From Octopus vulgaris (Eukaryota), in contig OX597820.1 in assembly GCA_951406725.2 (NCBI GenBank), forward strand, positions 30,318,001 through 30,382,000: a stretch of 64,000 bases of DNA, in the 5' to 3' direction. Of the stretch, positions 4,108 to 50,270 are shown one piece after another. Made by a program: the position numbers and the translations under genes. The notes under the pieces are model-generated. The model worked only from the letters and a program-made list of their open reading frames with translations, was not told the origin of the DNA and ran no database searches. Position 1 is the stretch's first letter. Each line of letters begins with the position of its first letter.

Positions 4108-4400
4108 ACTTACAAATCAATATAAGTGCGAATATATATATGGCAGATGTCCTAATAAGGTCGGATTCAGTCTGCGAGAACAAACTAAGACCTCACCGCA
4201 CAACTTCCTGATCTTAAAAAGTGTTTATAAACAACAAAATCACGAAGTAAACACCATCAATGGCTTTGTGATGCCAATTACTACAGATCTCGACAGAAGT
4301 CTTATCTCACATATGATAACCTTGTCATAAAAGAGGAAGCGTTGGAGAATAGCTATGAAAATAAAGGCAAAAATATATATGAGGGGAACTAACTCTTTCT
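4108..4400 (-). promoter_or_regulatory. Conserved ZF promoter/non-coding first-exon module, copy A (no ZF exon in window)
   Basis: Minus-strand donor TTT|GTAAGT (plus acttac 4108-4113). Shared blocks gatgtcct, agtctgcgaga, caacaaaatcacgaag. Motif ggggaactaactct at 4383-4396. Confidence 0.7.
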
Positions 4401-5181
4401 TTATGTAATAGAGAGAGAGTAGGAGGAGTGTAGACAATAGAGATATTTGGCAAAATCAGATTAAAATAGTCATTGAGTTTTCCTCTCCTCACCGCATAAG
4501 TATTAATATTAATTAGATTCTCCGCCTCACAACATTAAAATGCGAGCCTTCCACTTGGTTTATGAGATTTGTTTTACTTTAATGGAATATCAATTTGTTT
4601 ATTATTGGAGTATTTTTTTAATGATTTAATACATAATATTCCTTTCATATTGAAATTGTCCTTTCCTTTCTTCACCAGATAAGTATTGATAATTAATTCG
4701 ATTCCACCCCCTCACTCATTACATTAAGCAGCAGGTATGACAGAGTATTAATTCGCTCATTGAATATTTTACATTTACATTTTATGAGTGGGGCTGTTCA
4801 ATATTTTTAGCAATAAAGTTTATATAAAGGTTGAAAAAAATAAGGCTAATTATTCTGTTTCTTACAATAGCCAAAGTTTAAATAAAAGGATTTTTTCATT
4901 TCTTTTCTCAGTCATTTTCTCACTTCTAAACCCAATCACTACTTAACTATATCAATCTCTGCATTTGTTAAGCCTTTTGACCCTCTGCTTTGCTTCATTG
5001 CAAAACTCTCCAACACAGAATCACATCCTACACTACATCAACCGTATTTGACCCAATGGCATTTGAACTCAGTGACTGGTTAGAGTTCTATGAGTTTCAT
5101 ACCACTTATACCTGGTATCAAATATTTCACTTTTGAGCCATCAAAAACAGTTAGGTGGGTGACTGAAACTATCCTTTAGGA

Positions 5182-5469
5182 CAGTGGTCCCTGACCATTG
5201 GGCTGCAGACCAGTGCCAGACCATGGATCACTTGGTACCAAAGTGCACAGAAAGAATAAATTTTCCAATTTTTATTTCTATTTTATTGACTATCACAACC
5301 TTCAGGGTGTTTTATTTTTAAAAATTACCACTTCCACTCCCATCTATACCTCTTGCCTACACTTGTCTTAAGTTACATAATTTTTTCTTATGCACATGAT
5401 ATCCTTGTCTGTGGAAAAATAGTCTTGCATGGAACAGGTCAATAGTGCAAAAAAGGTTAGGGATTGCTG
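5182..5469. mobile_element. hAT/Charlie-like MITE
   Basis: Termini cagtggtccctgacc ... ggttagggattgctg, with an imperfect 8 bp TSD (ctttagga/ctttaagg). Confidence 0.65.
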
Positions 5470-5569
5470 CTTTAAGGTATACCCAGTCACATCCTATATA
5501 CAATAAAATCTCAAAGTCCCAAGCCTACATAATGGTTTACTCTTAGCTTTGCTATAACTGTTTGTCATG

Positions 5570-5872
5570 AATGACCATAGGATTACACCTAGAAAGTTTC
5601 CCTCTGAAGCACAAATCTGAACAAGGCTATTTATAACCAGCAACCACCCATGCCTCTCCTCTCCACACCACCAATGTTATTGAAGGGAAAAGCAAAGGCT
5701 GATACAACTTGGCACCAGCAACATCACAATTCATTTACACAGCTGAGTGAATTGGAGCAATGTGAAACAAAGTGTCTTGCTCAAGAACACAATACATAGC
5801 CCAGTCCAGGAATCAAACTCACTACCTTATGATTGTGAACCCGACACTCTAACCACTGAACCATGTGCCTTC
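5570..5872 (-). mobile_element. tRNA-derived SINE (third family)
   Basis: The minus strand has a tRNA-like head (cagtggttagagtgtc...gagtttgattcc) then cttgagcaagacactttgtttcacattgctcc. Homologous pieces lie at ~21630-21880 and ~31945-32146. Confidence 0.65.
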
Positions 5873-6024
5873 ACTGCTGGGTGAATGTTTCTTCAGTGGG
5901 AGCCCTTACAACCACTCTGAATGCAGGGCTTCACTTTCACCAAGCATTTCTCCTGGAGGCAGCACATCCTTAGCACAGCATGGACTATATCCCCAAAAGA
6001 CTGGTTCTTTACACAAAAACGTTC

Positions 6025-6600
6025 ATAGGGTGGTCCTTTCACCCAGTCTAGTTATTTGTTAAGTATATTTTGTTTCCTCATAACTTCCAGAAAAATTGGT
6101 ATTTTTAAATGAAATTTTCTACAAATACCTTTCAGAATGAGTAGATTACGATTATATCATAATTTGGTGTAAAAAGAAAAATGGTAAGCACGTACATATT
6201 TTTTTCCTCAATTTCAAGTTTTATTTTGTATATGACGTGTCAGTTTGCATGTGTGAGAACTCCGTTTTTTTTTCTTTTTCGTGTTTCATATTACATCCCC
6301 GTATAATAGTAATCTACACACTCTGAAAGGTATTTGTAGAAATAATTTTCATGAAAAAATATCCATTTTTCTGAGTTATGTGGAGACAAAGCCGACTAGT
6401 GAATTTTTCGGGTACTCCGCTCCCCATTCACGGAAAAAAGTTTTTCACAACAAATTCCGATATAATCGAAAGCTACATCATCCGAAATGTATTTGTAAAA
6501 AAAATTCATTAAAAAAATAGCCCTTTCTCTGGAAGTATGCAACATTTACAAATTGACAATTCATTCCGAAAAATGAACAGAAACATTGTTTGAAAGTCTA
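6025..6600. mobile_element. DNA-transposon-derived relic with internal inverted sub-repeats
   Basis: Repeated cctcataactt and gaaattttctacaaatacctttcaga motifs occur in both orientations. The same motifs recur at 47060-47330. Confidence 0.5.
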
Positions 6601-7585
6601 CGAAAGAAATACTTTTGTTTATTTTTGAAGAAATACCTAATTTTTTACTATGCTGGTTACCTTCATAAACTAAACTATTCCGTTGAGAAATGAAAGCTGA
6701 AGTCTATAAAAATGACATTAAATTACCTATTTTTAGCGGAGAATTGGCAGTTAGAGCGTAGGATCGAAAGCTTCACGATGTTTGTTCCGACTCTCAAGAT
6801 TCTAAGTTCAAATCCCGCCGAGGTCAACTGTCTTTCATCCTTTCGGAGTCAATCATAATAAAGTACCAATCCAAGGTGGTGGATTAGTAAAACTAAAAAA
6901 GGTGGGTCCGGATACCTTGCGGTATTGTTCAGGTTCTTTGCATTCTGATTTCAAATCCTGCTATGACAGACTTAACCCGTCGCCCGGTTTAATACCACCA
7001 TTTGGCACCTTGGTTGTCTTTAGGAGATCCACTTTGTAGCAAGTATTCGGACCAGGCCTCTGCTTTGAGATCCTCTACTCCTACCTCCCTCTCTCCTACC
7101 AATCGCAGAGACCCTGTAACGCATCAGGGGCACTGTCTTTCTTCCTGACTAAAAAAAAGATAAAACAAAAAGAATTTAATTATTCGTTTCGCTTGCCCAG
7201 GAAATATAAAAATGTTCACTGAATAATTAACATCATAATAGAAAATCGAAATATAAACTGAGACTGAGACAAGTATCAAAGAATGAATGATGGCACTAAA
7301 AGACAGGCAAGCCGGTCAATGGACAGCGTCAAGTAAAATTCTTCCGCCGGTCGCTGCACAACATCAAGAAAAAAATTCTTCCGCCGCACCCCTCCCCCCA
7401 AAAGAGAGAAAGAAAACTCATCTTATATTCCTAACTAATCCAACTAAACAAAAGCTTTAATTTCAGATAAAATTTGCTCTTTATTTATTTATTCTCTTTC
7501 GTTTAACTTCTTTGTGAAATGCAACTTGTAAAACGAAACATAGTTACACTATTAAATGGACTATAAGCATTGATATATTAATCAT

Positions 7586-7860
7586 ACTTACAAATCAATA
7601 TACACCGAATAGGAAATGTGGCAGATGTCCTCGTATGATCAGTCTGCGAGAGCAAGCAAACTAAGTCTCATCACACACAACTTTGTGATCTTGAATATTT
7701 TTAGAGTCAACAAAATCATAAAGTAAACATCAATGCGTTTGAGATAAAAAAAAATTACTACATATCTCCACACAAGTTTTTACCTCACTTATGACAAACC
7801 TTGTATTTAATGAATGACGGAGAACGTCTACAAGACTGGTCAGGGGAACTAACTCTTTGT
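7586..7860 (-). promoter_or_regulatory. Conserved ZF promoter/non-coding first-exon module, copy B (orphan or alternative promoter)
   Basis: Donor acttac at 7586-7591, colinear with copy A. Motif ggggaactaactct at 7843-7856. Confidence 0.7.
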
Positions 7861-8264
7861 TTATGTAATATATATAGAGAGAGAGTAAGCGTATGTGTGA
7901 GAGTGAGAGGGATACAAATAGAGAGGGGTGGAATTAATACGTGTATATGGGAGGGAGTCAAAGATACACAGATAGAGAGGAAGAGGAGAAAATACGTGTA
8001 TGAGATTGTGAATGGTTCTTTCTCCGAAATAAAGCACTGTTAATCTTTAACGTGGAATTAACGGATGCTCGGTGTTTCTCGAACTTTTAAACTCTTGCTC
8101 CTTTACTTACACTAACATTTTTTCAACGTACCCCCTTCTTACAGTTGCACGAAAAACACGCTACAAAATTTGCTCTTGATAAGTTGGTTACCATTTGAAG
8201 TCTATTTACACATAAGTCACTTCATCAACATATGGAATGTCAAAACATCATTTCGACCAATATT

Positions 8265-8462
8265 ATTTCTAATATAGGCACAAGGCCTGAAATTTGGGGG
8301 ACGGGTAGTCGATTACATCGACACCAGTACTTATTTTATCGACACCGAAAGGATGAAAGGCAAAGTCCACCTCGGCAGAATTTGAACTCAGAAAGTAAAG
8401 ATGAATGAAATGCCGCTAAGCAGTTTGCCTGGCATACTAACGGTTCTGTCAACTCGCCGCCT
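8265..8462 (-). mobile_element. tRNA-derived SINE (Meta-domain-like family)
   Basis: Reverse complement of ggcggcgag...ctgagttcaaatt...gactttgcctttcatcctttcgg. Other copies lie at ~6735, 8878, 25822, 27690, 28551, 40724, 41805, 46910 and 52258. Confidence 0.75.
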
Positions 8463-8475
8463 TATTTCGACTATT

Positions 8476-8865
8476 GGCGATCTTTCATCTCTAGTCGATT
8501 TCCGTAAAAAAATTTATTTTTTTTTACATATGGGCTTGCGGGAACTTTTGAAGTAATGAGAGCGAAAGAGACTAAGAGAAAGCGATTGTATGACGAGGGA
8601 AATTCTTTTGAAGTTACCGTGCATGTGAAGCATTGATGTACATGTGTGTGTGTGTGTGTGTGTTTGATGGGGTGTGGGAGACAGACAGTATGTTGTGTAA
8701 GTGAAGTGCTTCTGTTAGTGTGTGTGAAAGAAAGAGATAACTGAAATTTTTTACTCGGTGTATGTATATTACTTCAAAAGTTCCCGCAAGCCCATATGTA
8801 AAAAAAAAAAAATAAATTTTTTTACGGAAATCGACGGAAAGGTCTACTAGAGACGAAAGATCGCC
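8476..8865. mobile_element. MITE with GG...CC termini and 8 bp TSD (Merlin-like)
   Basis: TIRs of about 80-95 bp (ggcgatctttc...gaaagatcgcc). Exact TSD cgactatt at 8468-8475 and 8866-8873. Confidence 0.85.
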
Positions 8866-9249
8866 CGACTATTAATATTGGTTCCAAATTTTGACACAAA
8901 GCGAGCAATTTCAGGGGAGGGAGTAAGTCGATTACCGACCCCAGTACTCAAATGGTACTTATTTTATCAACCCCGAAAGGATAAAAGATAAAGTTGACCT
9001 CGGCAGAATTTGAACTCAGAACAGGAAAACGGATGAAATGCTGCTAAGCATTTCGCCCAGCATGCTAACAGTTCAGCCAGACTGCTGCCTTAAAATTTCA
9101 ATCACTAATATTACCAAATGACTTGTTCATAGAGTAAAAATTTTAAATATTTTTGGAAACTGTATCTATTCCTCTCCATCCCTTTATGCCCAACTCCCAT
9201 ATAGTATTTTCTCACAAGGCAAGAAACAAAAGTATAAATTATTCTGAGT

Positions 9250-9945
9250 GGGTAACAGCAAAAGGATGAGTAGCTTTGGTAGTGCTAACAAAGAAATGAA
9301 TGGATAATGTAATCAAGGTAGACAAATTATGCATTAGACTTAGGTTAGTCTTATTCAAAAGAGCAAGAACAGTTTCAACAGTTAGTCTCTGCATCACACC
9401 ACAAACAGGGCTGGCAGATGAGCATTTTTATGAACCATGTACAACGGTGCTAAAGTGCTGGTAGGAAACCACCAGGGCTTACTTCTCAGCCCCTTCCATT
9501 TATCATTGTTAAGGCCTGGAAGCCTTAACAAAAGTCTCATGACCTAGAGGTTAGGACACTTTTGTTATGGCCTGGATGAATTTAACTAACTGAATTTGTA
9601 GTAGAACTGGAAAATTTCCATTCATAGAAGTAAAACCTAGAATGGAAAGCCCTAGACAAATACAGAGGACTTTGCTACCATCAAAGAAATGGCTGTCCTC
9701 AATATGCAGGAAAGGAGTAGGCAGGAATTCCATAGTGACCCCTATCAAAACTAAAGACATACAAGATGTATAGTGGAATCACGAGCTGGCTAATTAGGGA
9801 GGTAGACTTTGTATGAGGCAGATTCTCAGAAGCTGTAAGCATTAAGAGCAGGCATAAAATAGATTCTTATAATTCCCAAAAAGTGGTTGATAGTTTCTGT
9901 TGCCTAATTTGTAATGGAGGTAAGTGCTCTGAAAACATAGTACCA
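9250..9945 (+). mobile_element. Highly decayed RTE-type LINE fragment
   Basis: Remnants resembling HQGSVLSPLLFIIV (~9470), VVDSFC.L and GG.CSE.IV (~9885-9940). Confidence 0.55.
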
Positions 9946-10861
9946 ACCAACCAACTAACTAACCACTGTGACTACCACTACCACTACACAGCACTAATAG
10001 TTAAGGTCTATCGTATTTGCCACCTTACCAACTCTGTTCTATTCAACGTCTATCTACACACTCAAAAAATTCTCTGCTTTTCTCTCTCCAACTTCATTTG
10101 TTCCTCAGTTCTTTAGTTCAGTTAATACACCTATGTATATAAAATAAACTTACAAATGTAAAGGATGTGGACCACAAAAGCTGTATGCAAACAACTCATA
10201 TACAGAATATTAATTTGATACACAATAAAGGGCTCTCTTTAATCATGTTATAGACAACTTCTCTAACACTAGTGGCTAGCAAAATGTAACTGGTCTACAG
10301 TGTAAAGTGGTTGTGATAGGAAGTGCATTCAGCCATAAAAACCAAGGCAGAGATGCAGGGATGTTTGTCCAACCCATACTAGTGTGAGAAAACAAATATA
10401 AAATGTTGATGACAATAAATCTAATTACTTTTATCACGCAGTGCTGTATCAATTAAACCAAATATAAGAGAATTAACCCTTCTTTTATTCTAGCATTAGA
10501 ATTGCTGTTTATAACTTGACATCAATTTGACATATGATACATGTTAGAATTACTTGCAAAAAACAGAAATGTTTCCCACTGTTCTAACTTCTAGACTGCT
10601 TTATCACAGACTTAATTGTGACAGAAAATCCAACAATTTTGCTAATTAATGTGTAATGAAAAATCAAAGACATAAAAAATAACAGATTCTCATACAAATT
10701 ATTTTATCGACATTTTACATGATTAAGGAGCTTGTTTCACATTTTAGTCCCACTGCACAGCACTCTTGGAAAGTATCTTTTTCTATAGCCTAATGTATGA
10801 ATATATAGATGAGTTTGTGTATATGGGCACATTGTCCATATACCCAAATGCACACACACAC

Positions 10862-10893
<32 letters not shown>

Positions 10894-13396: not shown

Positions 13397-14530
13397 TTAT
13401 ATTAGTGACTGTTCCTCTCTTGTGTGGATACTTCTGTGTTTGGTTACTTGAAATCTATAAGAGAATGGTTTACCACAGATATCACAGCTATGTGGCTTCA
13501 AACCTGTATGAATTTTTTTATGTCTAGTTACATGTCTTCTTTCAGAAAAGGATTTACCACAGATATCACAGCTATATGGCCTCTCTCCTGTGTGAATATG
13601 TTGGTGTGTAGTTAAATGACTCCTTTGAGTAAATGAATTACCACAGATATCACAGTTATATGGCTTCTCTCCTGTGTGAACAATTTGATGTGTTTTTAAG
13701 TGACCTTTTTGAGAAAATGATTTGTCACATATGTCACACTGAAAGGGTTTCTCACCAGTATGAATACGTACGTGTTTTGTTAAGGAACTTCTTTCAGAGA
13801 ATGCTTTACCACAGGTATCACACTGAAATGGTTTCTCTACTGTATGAATTCGTATGTGTTCAGTTAAGATATTCATATGAGAGAATAATTTACCACAGAT
13901 ATCACAGTGATATCGTTCTTCTCCTTGAATACATTTGTGTGAAGTTAGGTAACGTTTTTGAGAGAATGATTTTTCACAGATATCACAGTGATATGGCTTC
14001 TCCCCTGTATGAATTCGTTTGTGTTTAGTCACTTGGTTTGTATCAGTAAATGATTTACCGCAGATATCACAGCTATATGGCTTCTCTCCTGTATGCATAT
14101 ATTTGTGTGTAGTTAAAACAGTTTTTTGAGAAAACGATTTACCACATACATCACAGTGATATGGCTTCTCGTCTGTATGAATACGTTTATGTATAGTTAA
14201 GGAACTTTTCTGTGAAAATAATTTATCACATATATCACACTGATATGGTTTCTCTCCTGTATGAATCAGTACATGCTTACTTAAGTTACTTTTTTCTGAG
14301 AATGATTTACCACAGATATCACAGTGATATGGATGCTTTCCTGTATGAATGTATTGGTGCGTAGTTAAGTAACGTTTCTGAGCAAATGATTTATTGCATG
14401 TGTCACAGTGATACGGTTTCTCTCCAGTATGAATACGTACGTGTTTAATTAAGTTACATTTTTCAGAGAATGATTTACCACAGGTATCACAGTGATATGG
14501 TTTTTCTCTAGTGTGAGATAAACTGCTCAT
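13397..14530 (-). CDS. C2H2 zinc-finger protein ZF1 (13 fingers, finger 7 degenerate; no KRAB/BTB/ZAD domain)
   Basis: 377 aa ORF of CxxC...HxxxH repeats with TGEKP linkers. Upstream acceptor TTTCAG| at 14746 and donor at 18481. Confidence 0.93.
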   Translation of the reverse strand: MSSLSHTREKPYHCDTCGKSFSEKCNLIKHVRIHTGEKPYHCDTCNKSFAQKRYLTTHQYIHTGKHPYHCDICGKSFSEKSNLSKHVLIHTGEKPYQCDICDKLFSQKSSLTIHKRIHTDEKPYHCDVCGKSFSQKTVLTTHKYMHTGEKPYSCDICGKSFTDTNQVTKHKRIHTGEKPYHCDICEKSFSQKRYLTSHKCIQGEERYHCDICGKLFSHMNILTEHIRIHTVEKPFQCDTCGKAFSERSSLTKHVRIHTGEKPFQCDICDKSFSQKGHLKTHQIVHTGEKPYNCDICGNSFTQRSHLTTHQHIHTGERPYSCDICGKSFSERRHVTRHKKIHTGLKPHSCDICGKPFSYRFQVTKHRSIHTREEQSLI

Positions 14531-15559
14531 AGCAAATATTTCACCAGAAATGTTTTATAAAGTATTGGTTTTTGTCAACTAATTTATCTCAAATAACTCA
14601 ATTCTTGATGCATTCATTTGTGCTTAATTAATTGATTTTCACATTAATGTTAAAGAGAGATGATTTATTCACTTTCACTTCAGTGTCTGCTTCATTACTT
14701 CTTTGTTGTATACAATTTCATCTCAAAGCTCTCTGGTTTGATAACCTGAAATAAGAAATAATATATATATAACAGAAAATTATTTGAAAGATGGGGGGGG
14801 GGGGGGAGATATTGATTCCTAAAGATTATCAACATGATTCAGTTTCATAAATGAGTTACACTAATTTAGCCTGCTGTTAATTGATTTGTAGAAATTAGCA
14901 ATATTGATCTATTATTTCAGACAAATCATGCCTTCACCTAGCTGAGTATTACACCACATATACAGACAGGCAGTGATTAGTCATATTGAAGAATGGCATA
15001 AGAGTCTGGACATGCCACACTCTCTCTCCTGCTTCATCTGTATCTGTACATTGGTAGATTCTGGTGTTAGCCACGAGCAGACTAAGTTGGGATGAAACAA
15101 TTGTTATTCCTCTACATTGAATGCAATCATCATTGGTAATGTACATCTAAGCATACTGTTTAGCTTAATGAAGCCATTGATTCTGGTGTTATATTTGTGT
15201 ATTAATGTTTCTAATGATTGTTGTGGCTAAGTGAGTAAGGTATGTTCTTTGGATGGTGGTGTTGCAATATTTTGAGGTGTTATAGAAAAGTGTCTTTGTT
15301 TGAGGGTAATTTTTTTTTATGTAGTGAAGGTGACTGTGATGGCTAAAATGTACCATGTCAAATAAATTACACTTCTTGGATGTCAGCATGATCTTTTCTT
15401 TTGAATATTTATTTCTGTTGTGTAGTGGTAGCTGGTGTGCTGTCTATAAGGACGAAAAGTACATTGCTTTGTGTTGTTTATAGTTTATTGAGGAAAGAGT
15501 TGAGGTAGCACTTGCATAATCTATGATGGATCTATTGTATTTTTTATTTTTTACTTGCT

Positions 15560-17704: not shown

Positions 17705-18475
17705 CTTAAGTCTTTGCTAAGTTTAAGTACTTTCAATTACAGTAAGAAACCATCAGTATACGGAAGTTCTTATGTACAGCCGGTCTTAAAACACTTTTTG
17801 TTGAGGTTCTTGGGGATTACAATGATTACAACGAATGCAAACAAAATATACTTCAAATGCAAAACACTATCCACGCACACACGCATCCCCTAATCTTCAT
17901 CGCGCTAATTTTTTTATTTAAAAAAGGTTTTGGCAGATACTTAATACCTGATGTTCGAAAATTTTTTCTTTTTTCTTTTTTTGAAAAAGCATAATAAAAA
18001 GAGAGGGGTTGTTATAAATACGATTAAACGAAAAAGCCGCACAAATGTATAGTAATGTACACATTTGTAAAAGCAGAAATAAATTAAAAAATCGTAAGGT
18101 AATGCAGAGAGATAAAAAAAAAAAAGGATCAGATGTATTTAAGGACATACCAGACGTACCCCAACTTCAATAGCGTTTATTCAAGGTAAAAAAGTTTTAA
18201 GTGCATTACAGCTTATGGGGAAACCCAATATCGCATAGACCTGGTGTGATTTTATGAGACATTTTTTAGTGGGGAAAAAGTGTCATCAAATAAAGTAATA
18301 AGAGAATTATACAGTTTAGACCCAACTAATCCATCCAAACATCAGCTTTACTCTCGTAGGCTCGCTGCTTTCTTTATTTCCCTTTTTATTTATCTTTCTT
18401 GGTAAAATACACATAAAAAGGACACTGACGATGTTGATACATTAAACAGACTATAAACATTGATGCATTAATAAC

Positions 18476-18715
18476 ACTTACAAATAAACGGAGTCCGAAA
18501 GTGATATCAAGGCGATGTCCTGAATACAGTCTGATTTAGTCTACAAGAGTACACTAACCCCCGCGAGACTCAAGTTTCTGATCTTGAAAATTTCTTTATA
18601 TACGACAGATCATAAAGAAGAGACCATCAGAATTCATACAGCTAATTATTAAAGACCTCTACCTCAGATAAATCTCATACCTAATGTTTACAATAAACAA
18701 GGGAACCAACTCTGT
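18476..18715 (-). promoter_or_regulatory. Promoter/first-exon module copy C (for ZF1)
   Basis: Donor acttac at 18476-18481, colinear with copies A and B. Motif gggaaccaactct at 18701-18713. Confidence 0.7.
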
Positions 18716-20961: not shown

Positions 20962-21462
20962 TCTATATATATAAAACTGTAGTTGTGTGAGTGTCTGTCT
21001 CCTACGATTTAGATTCCTAACTACTCCCACATTTTGCGGTGCAGTTTAACCAAATTCGGGTATCTTATAGTCGTGATTCATATCGAGCCCGTCTGAGTAT
21101 TAGCACGCGTCTACGATGAGTCTACGATTTTAAAAATAATTTAACATCATTTTTTATTCCATTTTAATGCATAATTTTTCGTGTGTCGATGGCGGCGGAG
21201 TTGGCGTCCACACTCACAGCTGCACCTGTTTGCTTCTCCCCTCCCTCATGAAGCTGTGGGAAAGGGAGTGTAAGGAAATCGACGTCGTAAAGCGTTGTCA
21301 AGGAGACCAGCGTTCTTTTAGAACGACTTCATGGCTTGAAGACACCAAAACAGAAATGGCTAAGAAAGCCCAAATTGGCATCTATAAGGGAAGTAACTCT
21401 CTAAAACTGCTTATATAGTTATTTCCCTTACAAACCCGAGCAACGCCGGGCGATACTGCTAG
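20962..21462 (+). mobile_element. Non-autonomous Helitron
   Basis: Start A|TCTATATATATAAAA, hairpin cccgagcaacgccggg at 21435-21450, end CTAG|T, and no TSD. Confidence 0.88.
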
Positions 21463-23578: not shown

Positions 23579-24814
23579 TCAGAGGCTGTGTTTGTCTCCT
23601 GTATGAGTATGTTCATGTTTGATTACCTGATACCTATAGGAGAATGATTTGCCACAAATATCACAGCAGTGTGGCTTCTCTCCTGAATGGATTTTCTTGT
23701 GTCTGGTTACGTGATTTCTTTCAGAAAATGATTTACCACAGATATCACAGCTATATGGTTTCTCTCCTGTATGAATATGTAGATGTGTTGTTAAGTGGCC
23801 ACTTTGAGAAAATGATTTATCACATACTTCACACTGATAGGGTTTCTCTCCTGTATGAATACGTACATGTTTGCTTAGATTATTTCTTTCAGAAAATGCT
23901 TTACCACAAGTATCACACTTGTATGGTTTTTCACCTGTATGAATACGTACGTGTAATGTCAAGATGTATCTCTGAGCAAATGACTCACCACAGATATCAC
24001 AGTGATATGGCTTTTCTCCTCCATGAATAAATTTGTGTGAAGTTAAGTTACTTTTCCGAGAGAATGACTTATGACAGATATCACAGAGATATGGTTTTTC
24101 TCCTGTGTGAACCCGTTTGTGTTTGGTTACTTGGTGTGTATCAGTGAAGGTTTTACCACATATATCACAGTGATATGGTTTTTCTCCTGTATGTATGTAT
24201 TTATGTGTAGTTAAATGACATTTTCTAGAGAATGATTTACCACAAGTATCACAGTGATATGGTTTCTCTCCTGTATGTATAAATCTGTGTGCATTCAAGT
24301 GAGATTTTAGAAAGAATGATTTATCACAGATATCACAATGATATGGCATCTCTCCAGTATGAATGCGTCTGTGTTGGGTTACCTGGCTTTTATCAGTGAA
24401 TGCTTTATCACAGATATCACAGTGATATGGTTTCTCACCTGTATGAATATATTTATGTCTAGTTAAGCTGCATCTTTGGGAGAATTTTTTCCCACAGACA
24501 TCACACTGAAGTGAGTTTTTTCCTGTATGAAACAATTTACGTGATGTTAAAAGACTTCTTTGGGATAATGATTTATTACTAATATCGGATTTGTATGATT
24601 TTTCTCCTGTATGAATACGTTTGTGTCGGGTTATTTGGCTTGTATCAGTGAATGACTTACCACAGATATCACAGTCATATGGCTTCTCTCCTGTATGAAT
24701 ATATTTATGTCTAGTTAAGTGACTTACTCGAGAGAATGATTTACCACAGATTTCACAAAGATATTGTTTCTCTCCTGTCTGAAGAAGTTCATGTTGAGCT
24801 AACAAACTACTCAT
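23579..24814 (-). CDS. C2H2 zinc-finger protein ZF2 (14 finger units, finger 3 lacks Cys)
   Basis: The ORF track starts at a GTG (24895). The first ATG is at 24814 (MSSLL), homologous to the ZF1/ZF4 starts, with an in-frame TAA further upstream. Acceptor at 25781, donor at 28114. Confidence 0.92.
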   Translation of the reverse strand: MSSLLAQHELLQTGEKQYLCEICGKSFSRVSHLTRHKYIHTGEKPYDCDICGKSFTDTSQITRHKRIHTGEKSYKSDISNKSLSQRSLLTSRKLFHTGKNSLQCDVCGKKFSQRCSLTRHKYIHTGEKPYHCDICDKAFTDKSQVTQHRRIHTGEMPYHCDICDKSFFLKSHLNAHRFIHTGEKPYHCDTCGKSFSRKCHLTTHKYIHTGEKPYHCDICGKTFTDTHQVTKHKRVHTGEKPYLCDICHKSFSRKSNLTSHKFIHGGEKPYHCDICGESFAQRYILTLHVRIHTGEKPYKCDTCGKAFSERNNLSKHVRIHTGEKPYQCEVCDKSFSQSGHLTTHLHIHTGEKPYSCDICGKSFSERNHVTRHKKIHSGEKPHCCDICGKSFSYRYQVIKHEHTHTGDKHSL

Positions 24815-26894
24815 AGTGAATCTATTGCAACAAATATTAATATGAATTATATATCCTTGGTGAATCAATTGATTTCTTATGATGACTGACTTCACATTGA
24901 TACAAAGATATGATTTATTCAGTTATTTTCAGTGTCTGAACACAAACATCAATATTTTCTTTCTACATTTCTTCTGGGACTTAAACAATTTCCTCTTCAA
25001 AACCTTCTACTTCCATCATACAGCACAAAATTACTTTTCCTGCTTTTTTTAATGTGATTTAGAATATATTTCTCTCACTATATTTTTCTACCACAACACT
25101 GTTGTCTTTGACATATTCTGAAGATGTTTCAAACAATCGATAACAAAATTATAAATAACAATATAATCACTTCTGAAGTAATTGTTTCAAGAGGATTAAT
25201 TAGAATAGAACTCAATCTTATAATAAAAAGCTAGTAAATTAGGAAAAAAAAACCCAATAATAGCTAAAATATCTCTACTTGTCAACACAGATCCATACAT
25301 TCTTGTTCATTCAAATACTCATAGTGAATTATTCAATCCAGCACACATTTCGAGGTAATTAATATTTATATTGAGGTTAGTTTCAATTGAAAGGAAATCT
25401 TTCACAGTATTTGTAAATGAAAGATGAATACTTGATAAAAAAATTACTATATACTGTCAATTGAAGGTATTTGGGAAAAAGGTAGATTTACAAAGGTGTG
25501 TGAAAAAAAATGTGGAAAATCAGATTTCAGAATGATGTGTTTCTAAGAAGTGGTGATAAAAAAAACCCCAACATAACTGGTGATTTGCTGAATTCCAACA
25601 AATCTGTGTTTGCTTCATAAAATATGTATTAAAATGCTGAGGATAATGATCTTGATGAATTCAACCCAGGATTTCTGCAAACATATGTTCTTCATAAAGT
25701 CTTCTTGTTATCTTCAAAAATTGATGAACATATCGATGCATCTGAATTGTAAAGTCTTCAGGCCCATTTCACATGATATCCTGAAATAGAAAAACAGTAT
25801 AATAAACATGATTATTTAATATTGGTTTTAAATTTTGGCACAAGGCCAGCAAGATGGAGGAGGAAGTAAGTTAATTACATCAACCCCAGTGTTTAACTGG
25901 TACTTATTTTATCAACTCCAAAAGGATGAAAGGCAAAGCTGACCTCAGCAGAATTTGAACTTAGAATGTAGAGACAGGCGAAATACTGCTTAGCATTTTC
26001 CCAGCATGCTAATGATTCTGCCAGTTCACTGCCTTATAACATCATTTAATATTAGCTTGAAAGTGTTATAAATAACTTACATCAACTACTAAGTTTGGTA
26101 GACAAACTATACTAATTCAGTTCACATTTATTTGACTGGTATAAATTACAAACTATGAATCATAATGATGCAATTTTATTAGTGGAAAACTTAATTTCAA
26201 AATCTTTGAGCAGGTCTTTAAGACTATCATAATATACTAAGGTGGTCAAACTCCAGCTTATGAGTAGCATGATGAGACAACAGCTAAAGTATATAAAGCT
26301 TGTGGAAACCTACTATGACTTGCCACTCAGCGTTTACTTCCACCACACGACACTTATCATTGCAAATGTTTTAACTAACCTTTACTATACACACACACAA
26401 ATACATTCATATATATATGTCTCGAGTTGTAGCTGTAATTCAAAAGGCCAGCCTTGTCATATTCTGTGTGAGGCTGAATCTCCCTGAGAACTACGTTAAT
26501 GTTATGCATGACTGTGGAGTATTCAGCCATTTGTGAGTTAATTTTATTGCCGTGTGGTCATGTAAAGTGAAACTGACTGCCAATATTTGCTGTGTTGATG
26601 TTTCTATGTAAGAACTCTTCTTTGGAGTTACGTATCTACTGTCTCTCTCATTTTCTCTCTTTCTCTTTCACTTCTTTAGTGTCTCTCTTCCCTCCCGCTT
26701 TTGATTTAACAATGTGTATATGTATCTACTTCTTTTGCGATGTGATAAACATTTACAAGCACAAAACGAACGCCGTCACCACTCACTGTCTCTTTCACTC
26801 TTACTGCCTCTCTCTCGCTTTGTCACTTCTTTGAAGTGTGACACACACATCAGGTACATACAAAACAAAAAGTTAGCATATTAATATTATTGAT

Positions 26895-26895
26895 G

Positions 26896-28108: not shown

Positions 28109-28395
28109 ACTTACAAATCAAATAATCCAAATGTAAAATATTGATAGATGTCTTTTTACTGTCAGATTTAAAGTCTACGAAAGCAAACTCAGTGTCACCC
28201 ATACACAAAATATCACGATTTTGAATTTCTTTACCCACAAAAAAAAATCATAAAGCAGACATTATCAATGTCTTTGTGTTGACAATTATTATTAATTCCT
28301 AAACAAGTTCACCTGACATCTCAATTGATAAGTGTATTTATTCTAAATAATGTTTGGAGATTATCGACAATAAACGATCAGGGGAACAAACTCTT
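28109..28395 (-). promoter_or_regulatory. Promoter/first-exon module copy D (for ZF2)
   Basis: Donor acttac at 28109-28114. Motif ggggaacaaactct at 28381-28394, followed by a (GC)n and GA-rich tract. Confidence 0.7.
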
Positions 28396-32521: not shown

Positions 32522-33652
32522 CTACGATGGTTTTTCTTCAGTATGAGTACTTTGGTGTTTAGTTAACTGACTTCTTTGAGAAAATGATTTAGTGCACACA
32601 TCACACTGATATGGCTTCTCTCCAGTATGAACACGTTTGTGTCGAGTAACTTGGCTTCTACCAGTGAATGATTTGCCACAGACATCACAGTTGTATGGCT
32701 TCTCTCCAGTATGAACAAGGTGGTGTGTTGTTAGGTGACCTCTTTGAGAAAATGATTTATCACATATATCACACTGATAGGGTTTCTCCCCAGTATGAAT
32801 ACGTACATGTTGTATTAAGGGACTCCTTTCAGAGAATGACTTTCCACAGATATCACACTTATATGGTTTCTCTCCTGTGTGAACACGTATGTGTGTAGTT
32901 AAAATATGGCTGTAAGCGAATGATTCACCACAAATATCACAGCGATATGGCTTTTCTCCTCCATGAATATTCTTGTGTGAAGTTAAGTTAGTACTTCGAG
33001 AAAATGACTTCCCACAGATATCACAATGATATGGCCTCTCTCCTGTATGAACACGTTTGTGTATTATTAAGCTACAACTTTGGGAGTATGATTTATAACA
33101 TATATCACAATGATATGGCTTTTCTCCTGTGTGAGTATGTTTGTGTATGGTCAGGTAAGATTTTTGAAAGAACGATTTACCACAGATATCACAGTGATAT
33201 GGCTTCTTTCCTGTATGAATTTGTATGTGTGTATTTAGATTACTTTTCTGAGAAAAAGATTTACCACATGTGTGACAGTCATATGGCTTCTCTCCGATAT
33301 GAATATGTTTATGAGATGTGAAAAGACTTCTTTGAAAGAATGACTGACCACAGATTTTGCAGAGATATGACTTCTCTTCTCTATGAATACATTTGTGTTG
33401 GGCTCCTTGACTTGTATCATATGATTCACCACAGATTTCACAAGGATAGGATGTTTCTCCTGCGAGAATATTTTTGTGATCAGATAATGCATTGCTCATA
33501 ATGAAACTTTTGCTACAAATATTGTTAGTATGAAGTATTGATCCTCCATTAATTAATTTATGTTCACTTAATTGATTTTTTATGATGAATGACTTCACAC
33601 TAATGTCGCATAGAAATGGTTTATTCAGTATCTGATCACAGCATTTATACAT
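32522..33652 (-). CDS. C2H2 zinc-finger protein ZF3 (10 intact fingers plus degenerate N-terminal fingers)
   Basis: 376 aa ORF starting at ATG, with TGEKP linkers. Acceptor at 33982, donor at 35612. Confidence 0.92.
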
Positions 33653-34516
33653 ATATATCTATTATATGTAATTTCTTCTTTAGAATTTCTATTTTCATCA
33701 CGTTATACAAAATCATTTTTCATTCTTTCCTTTATGTTATTTAGAAGAAATATTTTTCTCCCTATAAGTTTGATATCACAGTTATCTTTGTCAATTTCTT
33801 AAAATGCTGCAGAAAAACCAAACATTGTTCCAATAGGATTAATTATGATAAACTTAAGCCAAGATTTACATGTAAAGGTTTACGTGTATTCTTCATAAAA
33901 TCTTCCTTTCCTTTTCAAAAGATGATAAATAAGTTGATGCAGCCAAAGTGAAAAATCTTTATGTCCGTATTACCTGATAACCTGAAATAAAGAAAACAAA
34001 TTCATGTATGAGAATTAATTTAATACTCAGGTTGAAAGTTATAAAAAAAAAAAAGAACCTAAAACAGTCGTGTTTATACATTGGAGTGAAAAGGACCATT
34101 TACTCATCCTTAAGGATAACTGATGACTTGTGCAGTGACTTTGTTTAAAATGAAAAGTTGCACACCATCAATCTCGCTACTTTATTCATAACCATCTTCA
34201 ATCCAGTGGTAAGACCTGGTCGAGACAACTGGGGATGTGTGTGTCTGTGATGTTTGCACATGTTTGTAGGTATACATATTTCTGCATGTAATTCCAATAA
34301 ATCAGGATTGCTCACCCCAGAGAGTAGGAAAATGCACAATCTATGTTGAGGTCACAATTCAACCAATTGCGTACATTCGGTTTGTAGACAAGAGTTAGGT
34401 CTTTCTTTGTTCGTGAATGCCAGCGAAAATAAGAGGTTACTTATTCATTCATTGACAAAATTAATGACTTTCAGTAGAACACTGCACGTACGTAGTTTGT
34501 GATAAAAGGATATATA

Positions 34517-35606: not shown

Positions 35607-35885
35607 ACTTACAAATCAGTTTAGTCCGAATGTGTGTAAAATAGCAGTCGCCCTCATATTTTGAGTCTTAATGTTGTCCAAGAAAACAAAATCAGCCCCA
35701 CCACACTCACAAAACTTCTTGAACTTGAACATGCAAACAACAAAGTAAACAAAGACATTTATCAATGCCTGCCAATATTTCAGATCTCTACATAAGTTTA
35801 TCTCACATCTGATAACCGTGTGATAAACAATAATTATTGTTATTGCAGAGATTTCTACAATAAACTACCAGGGGAACTAACTCTT
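35607..35885 (-). promoter_or_regulatory. Promoter/first-exon module copy E (for ZF3)
   Basis: Donor acttac at 35607-35612. Motif ggggaactaactct at 35871-35884. Confidence 0.7.
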
Positions 35886-37584: not shown

Positions 37585-37708
37585 CATTAGACAGATGTTA
37601 TATTAACAGGCACCTCTAGTTAGAGAAGAAGAGGGGCTAAACAGATAGGACCATGATGCCTGTTCTGAGATCCCCCCAAATTATCTGTATCTTTCTAGAA
37701 GCAACCCC

Positions 37709-43700: not shown

Positions 43701-44057
43701 ATGATGAAAGTGTTCAAATAATCTAAGTGCAGAAACTTCAGAATATATTTATGATAGAACTATTTGTAAAAAAACATTTAGCCACAGATCTCATAGATAT
43801 GGTTTGCTTCTTGTCTGTGATTATGTAAAATATTTTGATTTATAAAATGATTTGTTATAGATATATAAATGTTTTTTCTCCTGTTTCATTATGTTCATAG
43901 CTAGATAAATAACGTCTGTGAGATAATCTATTACGTTATAAACAATGATGATATTTCTCGTCTGAGTACTATTATGGTAAGGTAAATGATTACTTTGTCA
44001 GTAGAAGTTCCTGTGAATTGATAATATATCACTTTGGAAGATGACTTATTGCAAATA

Positions 44058-45293
44058 TCAGTAACTAGTTTCATCTCCTGTATGAATAAGCTTGTGTTTG
44101 GTTACCTGAAATTTATAAGAGAATGATTTACCACAGATATCACAGCTATGAGGCTTCTCTCCTGTATGAATACGTTTGTGTCTAGTCACATGATTTCTTT
44201 CAGAAAAGAATTTACCACAGATATCACAGCTATATGGCCTCTCTCCTGTATGAGTGTGTTGGTGTGTAGTTAAATGACCACTTTGAGAAAAAGACTTATT
44301 ACATATAGTACACTGATATGGTTTCTCTCCTGTATGAATACGAACATGTTTAGTTAAATGACTACTCTCGGAGAATGACTTGCCACATATATCACACTTA
44401 TAGGGCTTCTCTCCTGTATGAATACGTATGTGTGCAATCAAAATATATCTCTGGGCAAATGATTCATTACAGATGTTACAGTGGTATGGCTTTTCTCCTC
44501 CATGAACAAATTTGTGTGAAGTCAAGTTACTTTTCCGAGAAAATGATTTATCACACATGTCACAGGAATATGGCTTCTCTCCAGTATGAACCCGTTTGTG
44601 TTTAGTTACTTGGTGTGTATCAGTGAAGGATTTACCACAAATGTCACAGCGGTATGGCTTCTCTCCTGTATGTACGTAATGGTGTGTAGTTAAGTGACAT
44701 TTCTGAGAAAAAGATTTATCACAGATATCACAGTGATATGGTTTCTCTCCTGTATGAATACGTTTGTGCTGGATTGTTTGGCTTTTATCAGTGAACGCTT
44801 TATCACAGATATCACACTGATATGGTTTCTTACCTGTATGAGTATATTTATGTCTATTTAAACTACCTCTTTGAGAGTATGTTTTCCCGCAGACATCACA
44901 ATGAAACCGATTTTTCGCTACATGAATAAACTTATGTGCTGTTAAAACACTTTTTTGAGAGAATGATTTACTACAAATATCACAGGTATATGGTTTTTCA
45001 CCAGTGTGAATCCGTTTGTGCGTAATTAAATCACATCTCTGAGAGAAAGATTTACTGCAGGCAAAGCAACTATATGGCTTTTCTTCTGAATGAATATATT
45101 TGTGTCGGGTTACCTGGCCCGTGTCAGAGAACGTTTTACCACAGATTTCACAAGCATATGGCTTCTCTCCTGTATGAATATAATTGTGTGTAGTTAAGTG
45201 GCTTTTGCGAGAGAATGATTTTCCACAGATTTCACAAAGATACGGTTTCTCTTTTGTGGGAACAAGAATTTGTTGAGATAACAAACTGCTCAT
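44058..45293 (-). CDS. C2H2 zinc-finger protein ZF4 (14 fingers)
   Basis: 411 aa ORF with 14 intact CxxC-HxxxH units. Acceptor at 46105, donor at 50001. Confidence 0.94.
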   Translation of the reverse strand: MSSLLSQQILVPTKEKPYLCEICGKSFSRKSHLTTHNYIHTGEKPYACEICGKTFSDTGQVTRHKYIHSEEKPYSCFACSKSFSQRCDLITHKRIHTGEKPYTCDICSKSFSQKSVLTAHKFIHVAKNRFHCDVCGKTYSQRGSLNRHKYTHTGKKPYQCDICDKAFTDKSQTIQHKRIHTGEKPYHCDICDKSFSQKCHLTTHHYVHTGEKPYRCDICGKSFTDTHQVTKHKRVHTGEKPYSCDMCDKSFSRKSNLTSHKFVHGGEKPYHCNICNESFAQRYILIAHIRIHTGEKPYKCDICGKSFSESSHLTKHVRIHTGEKPYQCTICNKSFSQSGHLTTHQHTHTGERPYSCDICGKFFSERNHVTRHKRIHTGEKPHSCDICGKSFSYKFQVTKHKLIHTGDETSY

Positions 45294-46249
45294 AGTGAAT
45301 CTTCAACTACAACTGTAGTATTGATCTTTCAGCAAATAATTGTTGCCTCAGTAATATGATGTTTTTACAAAAGTGATATGATGTTCTTACAATTGTCTTC
45401 AGCCTCTAATTACAAAACTTAATATTTTATAACTTATTCATTTTCAGTTTGAAATTTATATAATTTCTTCATCAAAAGTTTCAATAGCTATATCAAAACA
45501 AAAATATTTTTCTTTTTTTCTTTACTCTTTCCACAATTAATATTTCTTCAAATATATATTTCTAAGACCAGTTATTTTTGTCAAATTCCGAAAAGGTTAT
45601 AGAATGCTACCATAATTGTTCCAAGACGATTAATTAGGATAGAATTCTTTTGTAATAAAATGCCAGAAAGTAAAGAAATCGCTAAAATATTTTACTTGCT
45701 AGCATAGATCCAAATATGAAAAGTCATTTAAATATTCTTAGTTTAATCTCTGTACAAAATTATCCAGTACATATGTTGAGGTAGCTATGAAAAATGATTA
45801 AATTCAATCAAGATATATTCCACAATATTTGTCAAGGGAGGGTAAATCTTGGCAGAAAAGAAATTATCATTTCTTTTCAATGGAGGATGATTGTGGAAAA
45901 TGAAGGTTTAATACAAATGTGTGTGAAATTTGGAAGCAAAATCTTAGAAAACTGTCTTGAAGAAGTGAGAAAAGGCTAAGATGGCTGGTTATATATTAAC
46001 AAACCTATGTTCTCTTCATGAAGTTTTCCCCTTTCATTTTCAAAAATTGAATGTCTTAATGCATCAGAAGAGAAAATTTTTTTCTGTCCATGGCCCCTGA
46101 AACCCTGAAATAAATAAACAATATAATATATACTACATAATTTAATAATGGGATACAAAAAATCTCTCCTAAAAATTTAGGCTATTAAATATTGTCAACA
46201 AGTACAGGCAGAAGCTTGATTTTTTACACCCGTTGCACTTTTTCTTTTT

Positions 46250-46863
46250 GGGTTCAGTCCCATTGCACGGCACTTTGGACAAGTGTCTTCTGATATAGCC
46301 TCAGGCCGACCAAAGCCTTGTGAGTGGATTTGATAGACAGAAACTGAAAGAAGCCCATTGTATATATATATATATATATATGTGCCGGTGGCATGTAAAA
46401 AGCACCATCTGAATGTGGCCAATGCCAGTGTACCTAACTGGCTCCTGTACCAGTGGCATGTAAAAAGCACCCACTACACTCTCGGAGTGGTTGGCATTAG
46501 GAAGGGCATCCAGCTGTAGAAACATTGCCAGATCAGATTGGAGCAGCAGCTGGCTCTCCAGACCTCAGTCAAACCATCTAACCCATGCCAGCATGGAAAA
46601 CGGACGTTAAATGTTGATGATGTATATATACTTATGTGTATGTGTCTTTGCATCTGTTTGTCCCACCACCATTGCTTGACAACTGATGATGGTGTGTTTA
46701 CGTCCCCATAACTTAGTGGTTTGGCAAAAGAGACCAATAGAATAAGTACTAGGCTTGCAAAAAATAAGTCCTTGGGTCGATTTCTTTGACTAGAAAACCC
46801 TTTAAGGTGGTACTCCAGCATGGCTGCAGTCAAATGACTGAAACAAATAAAAGAATAAAAGAA
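46250..46863 (+). mobile_element. 5'-truncated CORE-like SINE with an RTE-related element inserted in its (TA)n tract (46381-46621)
   Basis: The SINE consensus is interrupted at its internal microsatellite and resumes at ~46622. Confidence 0.8.
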
Positions 46864-47644
46864 TGCTTGGTTAATTTAGATTGGTAGAAATTACAACAGG
46901 GAAGAATAATGGTTTCAAACTTTGGTACAAGGCCAACAAGTTCAGAGGAGAGGGTAAGTTGATTGCATCGACCCCAATACCCATCTGGTACTTATTTTAT
47001 TGACCCCCAAAAGGATGAAGGGCAAAGTCGACCCCAGCAGCATTTGAACCCAGAACATAAATCGTAATCTACAAGCTCTGAAAGGAATTTGTAGAAAATT
47101 TCATCAAAAAAAATTGCCCGTTTTTCTCAAAGTTACGAGGAAACCATGTCAACTCATGTGAAATTTCCCCGGGGAAAAATTCACCACAAATTCCCATAAT
47201 CGGAATCTACACCATCTGAAGTGTATTTGTAGAAAAATTCATTAAAAATTTAGGTAAAATTCTGAAAATTTACCAAAATTTATCCATTTTCCCAGAAGTT
47301 ATGAAGCAACAAATTCGGTGGGGCACATTTGTGTAGGTATGCCGACCAGCTTGTTAACTTATAAATTCTTCTCAGCTGGATGTGAAAAAGTAGGTTAGAG
47401 TTTTGACATACAAAAATGCTCACAGTACAGAAAGTGTATGATCGTTCAAACACAACGGGGGAAATAAATAAATTTCGCGGTTACTAAACAGATACCAGCC
47501 AGACCGGGAAATAAAACTGGGCCCATTACACTCAAAGAACAGCGAGTTCTTATGATTGGGAACTTAAAAACGTTGAACTTAGCAAAAGGAATTATGCTGG
47601 GAGGGAAGGCACAATGAGTTAAGATTATTTACTTTGAGAACGAA

Positions 47645-47988
47645 AATATTTGGTTAATGTTTACAATATTACGCGGAAAGGAAAAATAATAGTCCAAGGA
47701 AACAAATATGAAAACAAAAATGCACGGAAAGCAACAAGGTGGGGGTAAGGAGAGGACTTCGGAAAATTCACAAGAGCCGAGTTTTTCCCTCATAACTTTT
47801 AGGAAAGCCATTTTCCTGAAAGTTATGAGGGAAAACTCGGATCTTGTGAATTTTCCGAAGTCTTCCCCACCCCGTTGCTTTCCGCGCATTTTTGTTTTCA
47901 TAGTCGTTTTCTAAACACTTTTTTACACCCGTTGCACTTTTTCTTTACTTCGTTTCCGGGTAGTGTGGTAAACATTAACTAAATATTT
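47645..47988. repeat. Large imperfect palindrome (core ~47707-47901), probably MITE-derived
   Basis: tatgaaaacaaaaatgcacggaaagcaac...cataacttttaggaaa / tttcctgaaagttatg...gttgctttccgcgcatttttgttttcata, with a loop of only a few nt. Confidence 0.85.
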
Positions 47989-48029
47989 TTTTTACAAATG
48001 TTTACTACATTACAAAGACAAAATCAGCT

Positions 48030-49850
48030 AAATAAATTACTTTTTCTAAACACATTAAAAACCCTATAGCATATTCAGAACACTATTTCAGAAAAATTAT
48101 CTTCGTTCTCTTTGAGCATCTAAAAAAATAAATTTAGCTAGAGCAAAATGAGGATACGATAAGGTAAATTTGCCTCTTCAACTGTCCACAAAAAAAAACT
48201 TATGCGCATCAATGGGATGAGAAATGCAACAAAAATTTTAAATATCTAGGTCAAATGAAAGAGCACCATGTTAAAATGGCACGTGATATGTAATTAAATC
48301 CCGACTACATAGAATATTCTCTAAGCAGTGGTTCCCAACCTGGGGTCGGCAAAGATAGTACTGGGAGTTCAAACATATTAAAAGGGGAAAAACTCATTTA
48401 AATAAAAGGGTTGGGTGCCACAGTTCTATAGCTTCGTGAAGATCCATTGGAGTAACTTGATATATTTACGCACCATGCAATTAATTATTGAAATGAGTTA
48501 TTACTAATTTTTCCCCAGGAAGACTTTGGGGGGGGGGGATTAACAAATTAGACGTTAGTGTGTGTGTGTGAAAGAGAGAAAATTGACAAAGAATCCAACA
48601 GAGAAGAATATTGTTAGCAACCTCAATTACAATCGGGTGAAAGTTGAGGAATTTTTTTTAAAAATCAAAAAAGTATCTATCACCTGAATATGTTCCAAAC
48701 TCTCAACTTGAACAACAACTATCCTGGCCAATTTTTACTCCGAAAGATGATGCAACAGTACAAAATGATGCAATACTTGTAATGTAACCGTTTCAAACAG
48801 GGTGGGAGAAAATAACGAGAAATAAAAAATTACTGAATTTGCTTCCTATACTCAAATATATTTCTTTTTAGACTTTACACGAAGGCCTTTCTTCTGCTTC
48901 AGTTTGAATATAAATGTTTCACTGATGACAATACTTTCGTACAAGGAAACCAGGGGGGGGGGGGCAAAATGAGGTGCTTTTACAGCATTTTTGGCTTTGA
49001 GACAAAATATATTTTTTACAGATGTTCACTACCTTCCAAAAACTAAGCAAATGGCCTACCCTAAATGTATTAAAAGCATTATGGCATAATCAGGTCACTA
49101 TTTCAGAAAATTATCGCCGTTGTCTTTGAGCATATAAAAGACAAATTTGGTTGGGGCAAAATGAGTAAGACAAGATAATGCAAAATTAGCTGCTTCAGTT
49201 CTCCGGAAAACAGACTCATACACATCAATATTCATCCTTAGATATCAGAAAGATCGGAAATGCAAAAAAAAAAAAATTTTAATATCTAGGTCAAATGAAA
49301 GAGGATCAGGGGAAAATGGTACATGATATGAAATTATCGAAACTCGAATAAAAAAAAAAAAACTAACATAAAATATTCTATGGCTTCTTCACGATCTGCT
49401 GGAGTGTTCTCTCCATGATATATTTAAACACCATGCAGTTAAAGAGATACGATTATTGAAATTAATCATTACTCATTTTACCCCATTTTTGGAACTTGAA
49501 AATTGTCAAATTAGACATTAGAGTGGGAAAAGAATTGACTTGGAATCAAACAGAAAAGATCCAAGGATACTGATTGATAAACTCTAAGAATTATCTATAT
49601 ATATTTTTTTCTTAGCAACCCCGATTACAATCGGATCAAAGTTGAGGAAACATTTCTTGAAAAATTAGGACCTGCCACCTGAAGGTTCTAGACTCCCTCA
49701 ACTTCAACAACTATGCTAACCAATTTTTATTCCTAAATATAATGTAACAGTACAAAATGATGATGCAATTCTTGCAATGTAATAATTTCGAAACTGGTAA
49801 TGAAAAAAATAACAAGAAAACTGAGGTTACTCATTTTGCCCCGTTACAAA
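48030..49850 (+). repeat. Diverged ~800 bp tandem duplication, probable DNA-transposon relic
   Basis: ~48050-48845 aligns with ~49060-49845. GGGGCAAAATGAG motifs occur in both orientations (48961, 49153, ~49470, ~49830). Confidence 0.7.
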
Positions 49851-49995
49851 TTCCATCCTCCACTTCTCACTAATGCAGTCAAATATCAGCGTTACCTTCA
49901 TGCATATTCCCCCGCTTTCTTTTATTTTAGCTTTCAATTAACTTCCTTTGACAACAGACATAATTAAAACATTAGATTAGACTATAAACAACAAT

Positions 49996-50270
49996 ACTTA
50001 CAAATCAATGTATTCCGAATGTGGTAAAAACAGTAAATAGCCTGCGTACTGTCAAAGGCCACGAGAACAAACTAAGCTTCCACTTACTCACAACGTCCTG
50101 ATCGTGAATATCCTTATAACAACAAAATCATAAAGGGGATATCATTAATGGCTTTTGCAGTGCCATTTACACCAGATCGCTCCATAAATGTACAGAACAT
50201 CTGATTAGCCGTGCGAAGCTCTGGTGAACGTTATAACTACAATGACCTATAAAGGGATTTAACTCGATTT
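49996..50270 (-). promoter_or_regulatory. Promoter/first-exon module copy F (for ZF4)
   Basis: Donor acttac at 49996-50001. Blocks cgagaacaaactaag and caacaaaatcataaag. Degenerate motif gggatttaactc at 50254-50265. Confidence 0.7.

Follow-up and report, generated by a model that had tools for sequence, protein, structure and literature searches.

The stretch of Octopus vulgaris DNA analyzed here (contig OX597820.1, positions 30,318,001 to 30,382,000; hereafter the window, 64,000 nt in length) carries C2H2 zinc-finger genes together with a non-coding block of about 270 nt that recurs six times. This locus raises the question of what the repeated unit is: a regulatory cassette, a structured RNA, a mobile repeat, or a part of the genes themselves. 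On the sequence evidence assembled below, the unit is probably the start and the non-coding first exon of a two-exon C2H2 gene, copied with that gene, and a 15-nt word at its 5′ end would be a start-site element. We regard the unit as an ordinary paralogous leader whose conserved start motif is the unusual part.

Recurring units and their C2H2 genes

The six similar blocks all lie on the minus strand of the window, which is also the strand of the zinc-finger genes. Read in the direction of the genes, each unit consists of a CT-rich tract, a AGAGTTAGTTCCCCT-type word, a body of about 250 nt, and an ATTT|GTAAGT donor, with 232–283 nt between word and donor. ATTT|GTAAGT occurs seven times in the window against an expectation of 0.55, and six of these occurrences are inside units (the seventh, at 10148, is outside any unit); the word, allowing up to two mismatches, occurs 12 times against 3.95 expected, and its exact 14-mer is present in three of the six copies. 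An earlier note on this DNA had described the six-copy recurrence on the zinc-finger strand, four TTTCAG|G acceptors ahead of zinc-finger exons, and the lack of a shared open reading frame (ORF). All three observations are borne out, the positions of the copies included: ATG-started frames in the five gene-heading copies do not exceed 38 amino acids, and none is common to the copies. The motif and GA-rich tract noted at that time are likewise present, but GGGGAACTAACTCT and its tract had been read on the plus strand; the gene-strand order is CT tract, AGAGTTAGTTCCCC, body, donor, and the motif is therefore the 5′ end of the unit. A variant U1 gene on the plus strand, where the units begin ATACTTAC, was considered and ruled out, as this sequence complements the donor and no U1 is reported by Rfam.

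The canonical donor is found in all six units, and five matching acceptors (TATTTCAG|G) were identified, one of them to the left of the window; the four inside it have their first exon base at 14745, 25780, 33981, and 46104. The window contains four C2H2 ORFs, all on the minus strand and with 10–14 fingers, and the two that were scanned have no further domain beside the fingers among the Pfam families shown. The predicted first exon at 50002..50266 (degenerate motif 50252–50266; donor 49996–50001) would be joined across an intron of 3897 nt to the acceptor at 46104, ahead of a 14-finger ORF (44058..45302; first Met 45293). Similarly, the unit at 35613..35884 (motif 35870–35884; donor 35607–35612) is paired across a predicted 1631-nt intron with the acceptor at 33981 and a 10-finger ORF (32522..33658); the unit at 28115..28394 (motif 28380–28394; donor 28109–28114) across a predicted 2334 nt with 25780 and a 13-finger ORF (23579..24922; first Met 24814); and the unit at 18482..18713 (motif 18699–18713; donor 18476–18481) across a predicted 3736 nt with 14745 and a 12-finger ORF (13397..14554; first Met 14530). 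These four pairs had already been recognized and hold. The predicted first exon at 4114..4396 (motif 4382–4396; donor GTAAGT 4108–4113) has an acceptor too, which lies 905 bases beyond the left edge of the window and is followed by a 12-finger ORF; five of the six units therefore head a gene, and only the unit at 7592..7856 (intact motif 7842–7856; donor 7586–7591), hereafter c7586, is unpaired. This copy is sister to the unit at 4114..4396 (tree support 84/92) and lacks a finger exon; a search for a finger or acceptor remnant belonging to it was negative, and it is possible that it serves as an alternative first exon. The part of the leader within exon 2 is long and rich in upstream ATGs at 24814–25780, at 45293–46104, and in the gene left of the window. 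A leader block of about 400 nt is present in three genes and missing from two, and no conserved GT-AG pair at its edges marks a second intron inside the long leader.

A profile built from the six copies and run on the window plus 100 kb on each side (264 kb in total) recovered five held-out matches (E 1e-10 to 1e-4), each 2.0–2.9 kb upstream of a same-strand C2H2 ORF, and three of these five units are inverted together with their gene. Across this region, 10 of 11 C2H2 ORFs have a same-strand upstream unit, inverted genes included, and 10 of 11 units have an ORF of their own. Unit divergence follows finger divergence among 10 genes (Spearman 0.55, Mantel p 0.006). Given the held-out pairing and the tracking of finger identity by unit identity, we infer that unit, intron, and finger exon were duplicated together. 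The promoter/first-exon reading and the co-duplication of unit and finger exon, both put forward in the earlier note, are thus supported, while its statement that the unit heads every zinc-finger gene applies to 10 of the 11 local ORFs: a 22-finger gene at window-relative −22799 to −20727 (minus strand) has no unit in the 7 kb upstream, nor do most sampled loci elsewhere carry one. That 22-finger gene stands head to head with the unit of the next gene. A pattern for the donor side of the unit returned three matches in the 2.8-Gb genome, all within the local cluster. Exact look-up of five window proteins found none in the protein collection, and there is therefore no annotated start to borrow.

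Constraint on the predicted exon and the 15-nt word

Exon 1 of the five gene-heading copies aligns with a mean z-score (z) of 10.4 over shuffles, whereas upstream DNA, intron ends, and 3′ flanks of the same copies reach only 0.9–2.2. The unit is accordingly alignable where introns are not, as previously claimed, but other non-coding parts can be aligned too, namely exon 2 over its first 120 nt (z 4.9) and some intron starts (7430–7723 against 18321–18617, 66%). A special constraint on the body of about 250 nt is not supported. Its identity is 0.60 overall and 0.61–0.68 in better-aligned parts; four-fold sites in these genes, a neutral standard that codon use or conversion could bias, show 0.64. 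Invariant gap-free columns make up 10 of 15 in the word, 10 of 10 in the donor, 44 of 181 in the body, and 1 of 13 in the intron, counts that are biased by the choice of word and donor for their conservation; it is therefore the genome-wide test of the word that carries weight. The likeness of paralogs between word and donor would be mainly one of descent.

These measurements make it unlikely that selection maintains the whole unit as a cis-regulatory cassette for co-regulation of the cluster. The excess of exon alignability over intron ends and 3′ flanks would fit such a cassette, as would the perfect motif and donor that the unpaired c7586 retains after 0.23 changes per site. Yet the body is at the level of four-fold sites, the invariant columns are concentrated in motif and donor, and the body can barely be aligned to other clusters that retain the word; cephalopod paralogs of one clade are, moreover, often placed in different co-expression modules in the accessible part of PMC12513265. 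A conserved, structured leader RNA, also suggested in the earlier note, is highly improbable. Sequence is conserved along the length of the exon, but the consensus fold has an energy of −1.52 kcal/mol and a single 6-bp helix in which one of six pairs shows a compensatory change; single copies fold with z from −1.8 to +0.2, and no Rfam match covers any unit. The structured-RNA explanation is in this respect largely refuted.

The word itself extends well beyond the local cluster. AGAGTTWGTTCCCCT has 44 matches in the genome against three for the reversed control. All 40 matches outside the window were examined, 33 with the A-variant and seven with the T-variant: within the DNA fetched, a same-strand finger lies downstream of 30 of the 33 A-variant matches and of none of the seven T-variant matches. 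The 30 sites are located on contigs 7, 9, 20, 21, and 27 and are not independent, including as they do upstream copies duplicated by a long interspersed nuclear element (LINE; see below) and many close contig-27 paralogs. Of 25 matches to a G-first variant, nine fall in the contig-2 cluster and 12 in that of contig 27. As far as it was retrieved, the contig-2 array consists of C2H2 genes, and a donor stands 310 nt past the word there; a GTAAG donor follows the word by 260–330 nt in most of these word sites. A CCCT variant has 16 scattered matches against three for its control. An 11-copy profile extends weakly over the contig-27 exons (E 4e-4 to 5e-4), which suggests that these exons and the local units come from one ancestral leader. 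Only the word, of 15–17 nt, and the donor appear to be kept across distant clusters, and the word is likely a start-site element.

The reach of the leader within the octopus C2H2 expansion is limited. Fifty-two loci were drawn from 150 finger matches, dropping near neighbours and limiting the number per contig, and 2–9 kb of upstream DNA was viewed per locus, a span that longer first introns would escape. At a word matrix score of at least 15, this sample gave seven sense, two antisense, and zero reversed matches; four of the seven sense matches were dropped as lying inside a dispersed repeat, and the exon profile adds one locus, so that the leader is carried by 4 of 52 loci. Within those 2–9 kb, the earlier proposal of the cassette as the unit of the whole expansion is not supported, and no other block common to the remaining sampled loci was found. 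One C2H2 pair (L073 and L075, G000:C7:36.8 Mb) shares a different, 192-bp donor-bearing block 2.8–3.6 kb upstream, likely a separate first-exon family. The word may also resemble the vertebrate ZNF143/THAP11 promoter motif.

Two further explanations involve mobile DNA. A HINE/Helentron-like element could have supplied the word, and with it the promoter, from its inverted-repeat end, or one protein could bind both. A one-base C-variant of the word has 228 genome matches against three in the control, one dispersed repeat accounts for 16 of 20 sampled C-variants and carries the word as an inverted pair, and an inverted partner is found 22–23 nt upstream of the word in two flank units; known HINE ends have such inverted pairs, according to the portions available of PMC7492417 and PMC4067079. 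We nonetheless consider this origin unlikely: likeness ceases past the word (z under 3 in 32 of 33 comparisons), and eight of the 10 local units lack the inverted partner, as do all zinc-finger sites among 47 others. The window contains a dispersed HINE/Helitron-like repeat at 21388–21427, with an inverted-pair word one base off the zinc-finger word. That the unit is itself a dispersed repeat and no part of the genes is barely credible. The lack of a finger exon for c7586 is what such a repeat might predict, but the profile finds no unit away from C2H2 genes anywhere in the 264 kb, which contradicts it; single-copy DNA searches of the genome, of low sensitivity, yield local copies only; and the unit lacks a terminal inverted repeat (TIR), a target-site duplication, and a tail, and inverts with its gene.

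A LINE at the word and the probable position of the start

Doubling of the word is frequent in the contig-2 and contig-27 clusters, where its copies stand 5.3 kb (or 3.3–3.6 kb) apart; between the doubled words lies a young, sense-oriented LINE of 5.3 kb whose full-length copies are 94–99.5% alike. It encodes an apurinic/apyrimidinic endonuclease (APE; Exo_endo_phos PF03372), a reverse transcriptase (RT; RVT_1 PF00078), and a C-terminal zinc domain (zf-RVT PF13966); this architecture suggests an L1/Tx1 type, and its homologs carry no clade names. A pattern for the LINE 3′ end, which catches young copies only, has 26 matches in the genome against zero in the control: 17 are followed directly by the word, one joins the exon with the word deleted, and eight are dispersed. 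This target share (17/26) lies above the 20% of flanks used as a criterion in the passages available from PMC4494074, and is accompanied by target duplication, the duplications at the word measuring 13–21 bp. The word is the target rather than a part of the element, because empty paralogs carry it with host flanks. When the 11 filled sites are mapped on a tree of the 32 host exons, eight changes are needed, at least four of which are forced by well-supported branches, and the filled sites form one group in 0% of bootstraps; at least four separate insertions at the word are therefore likely. At two clean sites (L173 and L174), the downstream word copy starts GGAG and the upstream host copy does not, a hint that the LINE RNA may carry the first bases of the word. 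In the local cluster, none of 11 units is filled.

Several loci show stacked insertions at one word (L025–L027; L134, L143, and L144), some of the elements having other 3′ ends, and possibly a second element family has the same target there. Dispersed LINE copies at L166 and L169 (G000:C1:77.38 Mb and C7:13.50 Mb) have another common flank word and one tandem insertion; this is possibly a second target word for the LINE.

The LINE also bears on where transcription might begin. Counted from the word's first base, TATAWA lies at −31 to −35 in 17 of the 22 contig-27 sites whose upstream DNA is of host origin, although these sites are paralogs and not independent. To the right of the window, a LINE 83% like the targeting family (L011:4225–6603, plus strand; window-relative 68225–70603) ends 7 nt past its AATAAAG, where it abuts base 1 of a U2 half-gene (the 5′ half), and the targeting family meets the word 5–6 nt past AATAAAG. 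From the TATA spacing and the junction of the sister LINE with the U2 +1 position, we place the putative start at the opening bases of the word. An initiator in mid-word (TTAGTT) is disfavoured, as TATA spacing and LINE junctions point to the first bases. RNA polymerase II would thus start on the first A or G of the word or no more than a few bases away, and the ATTT|GTAAGT lying 232–283 nt downstream would be spliced to the TATTTCAG|G of the finger exon. A LINE inserted at the word would be transcribed from the host promoter, and the downstream word copy would remain in front of the host exon after insertion. A second copy of the sister LINE is found at window-relative 63060–65149. Within the window, a full-length U2 small nuclear RNA (snRNA) gene occupies 59280–59473 (plus strand, 184 bits), and about 125 nt past it is an older relative (68–73%) of the targeting LINE, at 59600–60866.

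We advance tentatively, as a possible but doubtful extension, that the word is a family-specific initiator kept by selection at C2H2 mRNA starts on at least six contigs, and that the LINE evolved to aim there, priming with a few read-through word bases. Under this extension the element would take over promoters of a gene family thought to restrain transposons, severing each host gene from its TATA box. A number of observations weigh against the explanation favoured here. The predicted leaders are 447–1246 nt long with 9–23 upstream ATGs, odd for translated mRNAs, and it is possible that more introns or other starts lie behind them; splicing and start site are predictions from the sequence, and the canonical donor position is lost in two flank units. 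None of the eight local units listed has TATA at −30, and the start assigned to them is accordingly carried over from the contig-27 family. A dispersed repeat holds many copies of a one-base variant of the word. Of the eight dispersed LINE ends, two begin TGGAGT like the word and one has TATA at −30, and gene conversion among young paralogs could have scattered the filled sites on the tree.

A common first exon is, on its own, what tandem duplication predicts; what stands out is that the start word is conserved and also serves as a target for the LINE. The 15-nt word provides a high-precision tag for C2H2 gene starts across chromosomes and a handle on the transcription of an unannotated cephalopod family; it could also be targeted in reporter tests or in a knock-down of the whole family. 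If the LINE reading is true, the range of target-specific LINEs widens beyond RNA genes and repeats to include the start of a protein-coding family, and filled and empty paralogs in one array constitute a natural experiment on what an insertion does to zinc-finger expression. Elsewhere in the window, 171–1292 (plus strand) holds decayed, putatively transposase-like frames, and 62062–62327 holds a 116-bp tandem unit of 96% identity.

Comparison with known systems

In vertebrate clustered protocadherins, a short conserved sequence element (CSE) is described as kept in the promoter of every paralog while the rest drifts. The CSE lies upstream of the start and takes part in promoter choice with shared exons; the octopus C2H2 genes differ in that each has its own coding exon. 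Cephalopod C2H2 expansions are described as large clustered families in the accessible parts of PMC12513265 and PMC9068888, and the local genes resemble them in being plain finger arrays. The passages available from these papers describe no common leader of cephalopod C2H2 genes: "promoter" occurs zero times in their text, and "motif" and "exon" zero times in that of PMC12513265. A literature search that covered few subscription papers and no supplements listed nothing on the word, on the leader, or on a LINE directed to the starts of zinc-finger genes. The subterminal inverted repeats (subTIR) and inverted repeats of HINE/Helentron elements, as presented in excerpts of PMC7492417 and PMC4067079, comprise an 11–15-bp word in an inverted pair near the element end. 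Such a pair is seen in the dispersed repeat with the one-base variant, whereas the zinc-finger word is mostly single and is followed by neither an element body nor a 3′ hairpin.

The FZNF/FiNZ genes of zebrafish chromosome 4 are tandem C2H2 paralogs with a common first-exon sequence; a single morpholino should, by prediction, act on 447 of the 684 genes, and promoters fall into TATA-sharp and TATA-less classes (PMC10547256; 10.1101/2021.08.09.455629, both in the portions available). Tandem C2H2 expansion with common first-exon sequence is found in zebrafish and, by prediction, in octopus. The passages available on the zebrafish genes name neither a fixed +1 word nor a LINE aimed there, and they place the translation start in the first exon, whereas the predicted octopus exon is non-coding. 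For the LINE, the counterparts are the target-specific elements of the Tx1 clade, namely Keno (U2 snRNA), Kibi, Koshi, Tx1, and Tx1-Mar; PMC4494074, in the sections available, discusses transcription from the flanking target and lists snRNA and rRNA genes, microsatellites, and transposons as targets. The octopus element shares with these an APE-RT non-LTR (long terminal repeat) organization, a fixed site in a multicopy target, target duplication, and tandem re-insertion. Its preference is strong and not absolute (17/26), and its provisional clade follows from its architecture. It would differ from the targets listed in those sections in what it is aimed at, the putative start of a protein-coding multigene family.

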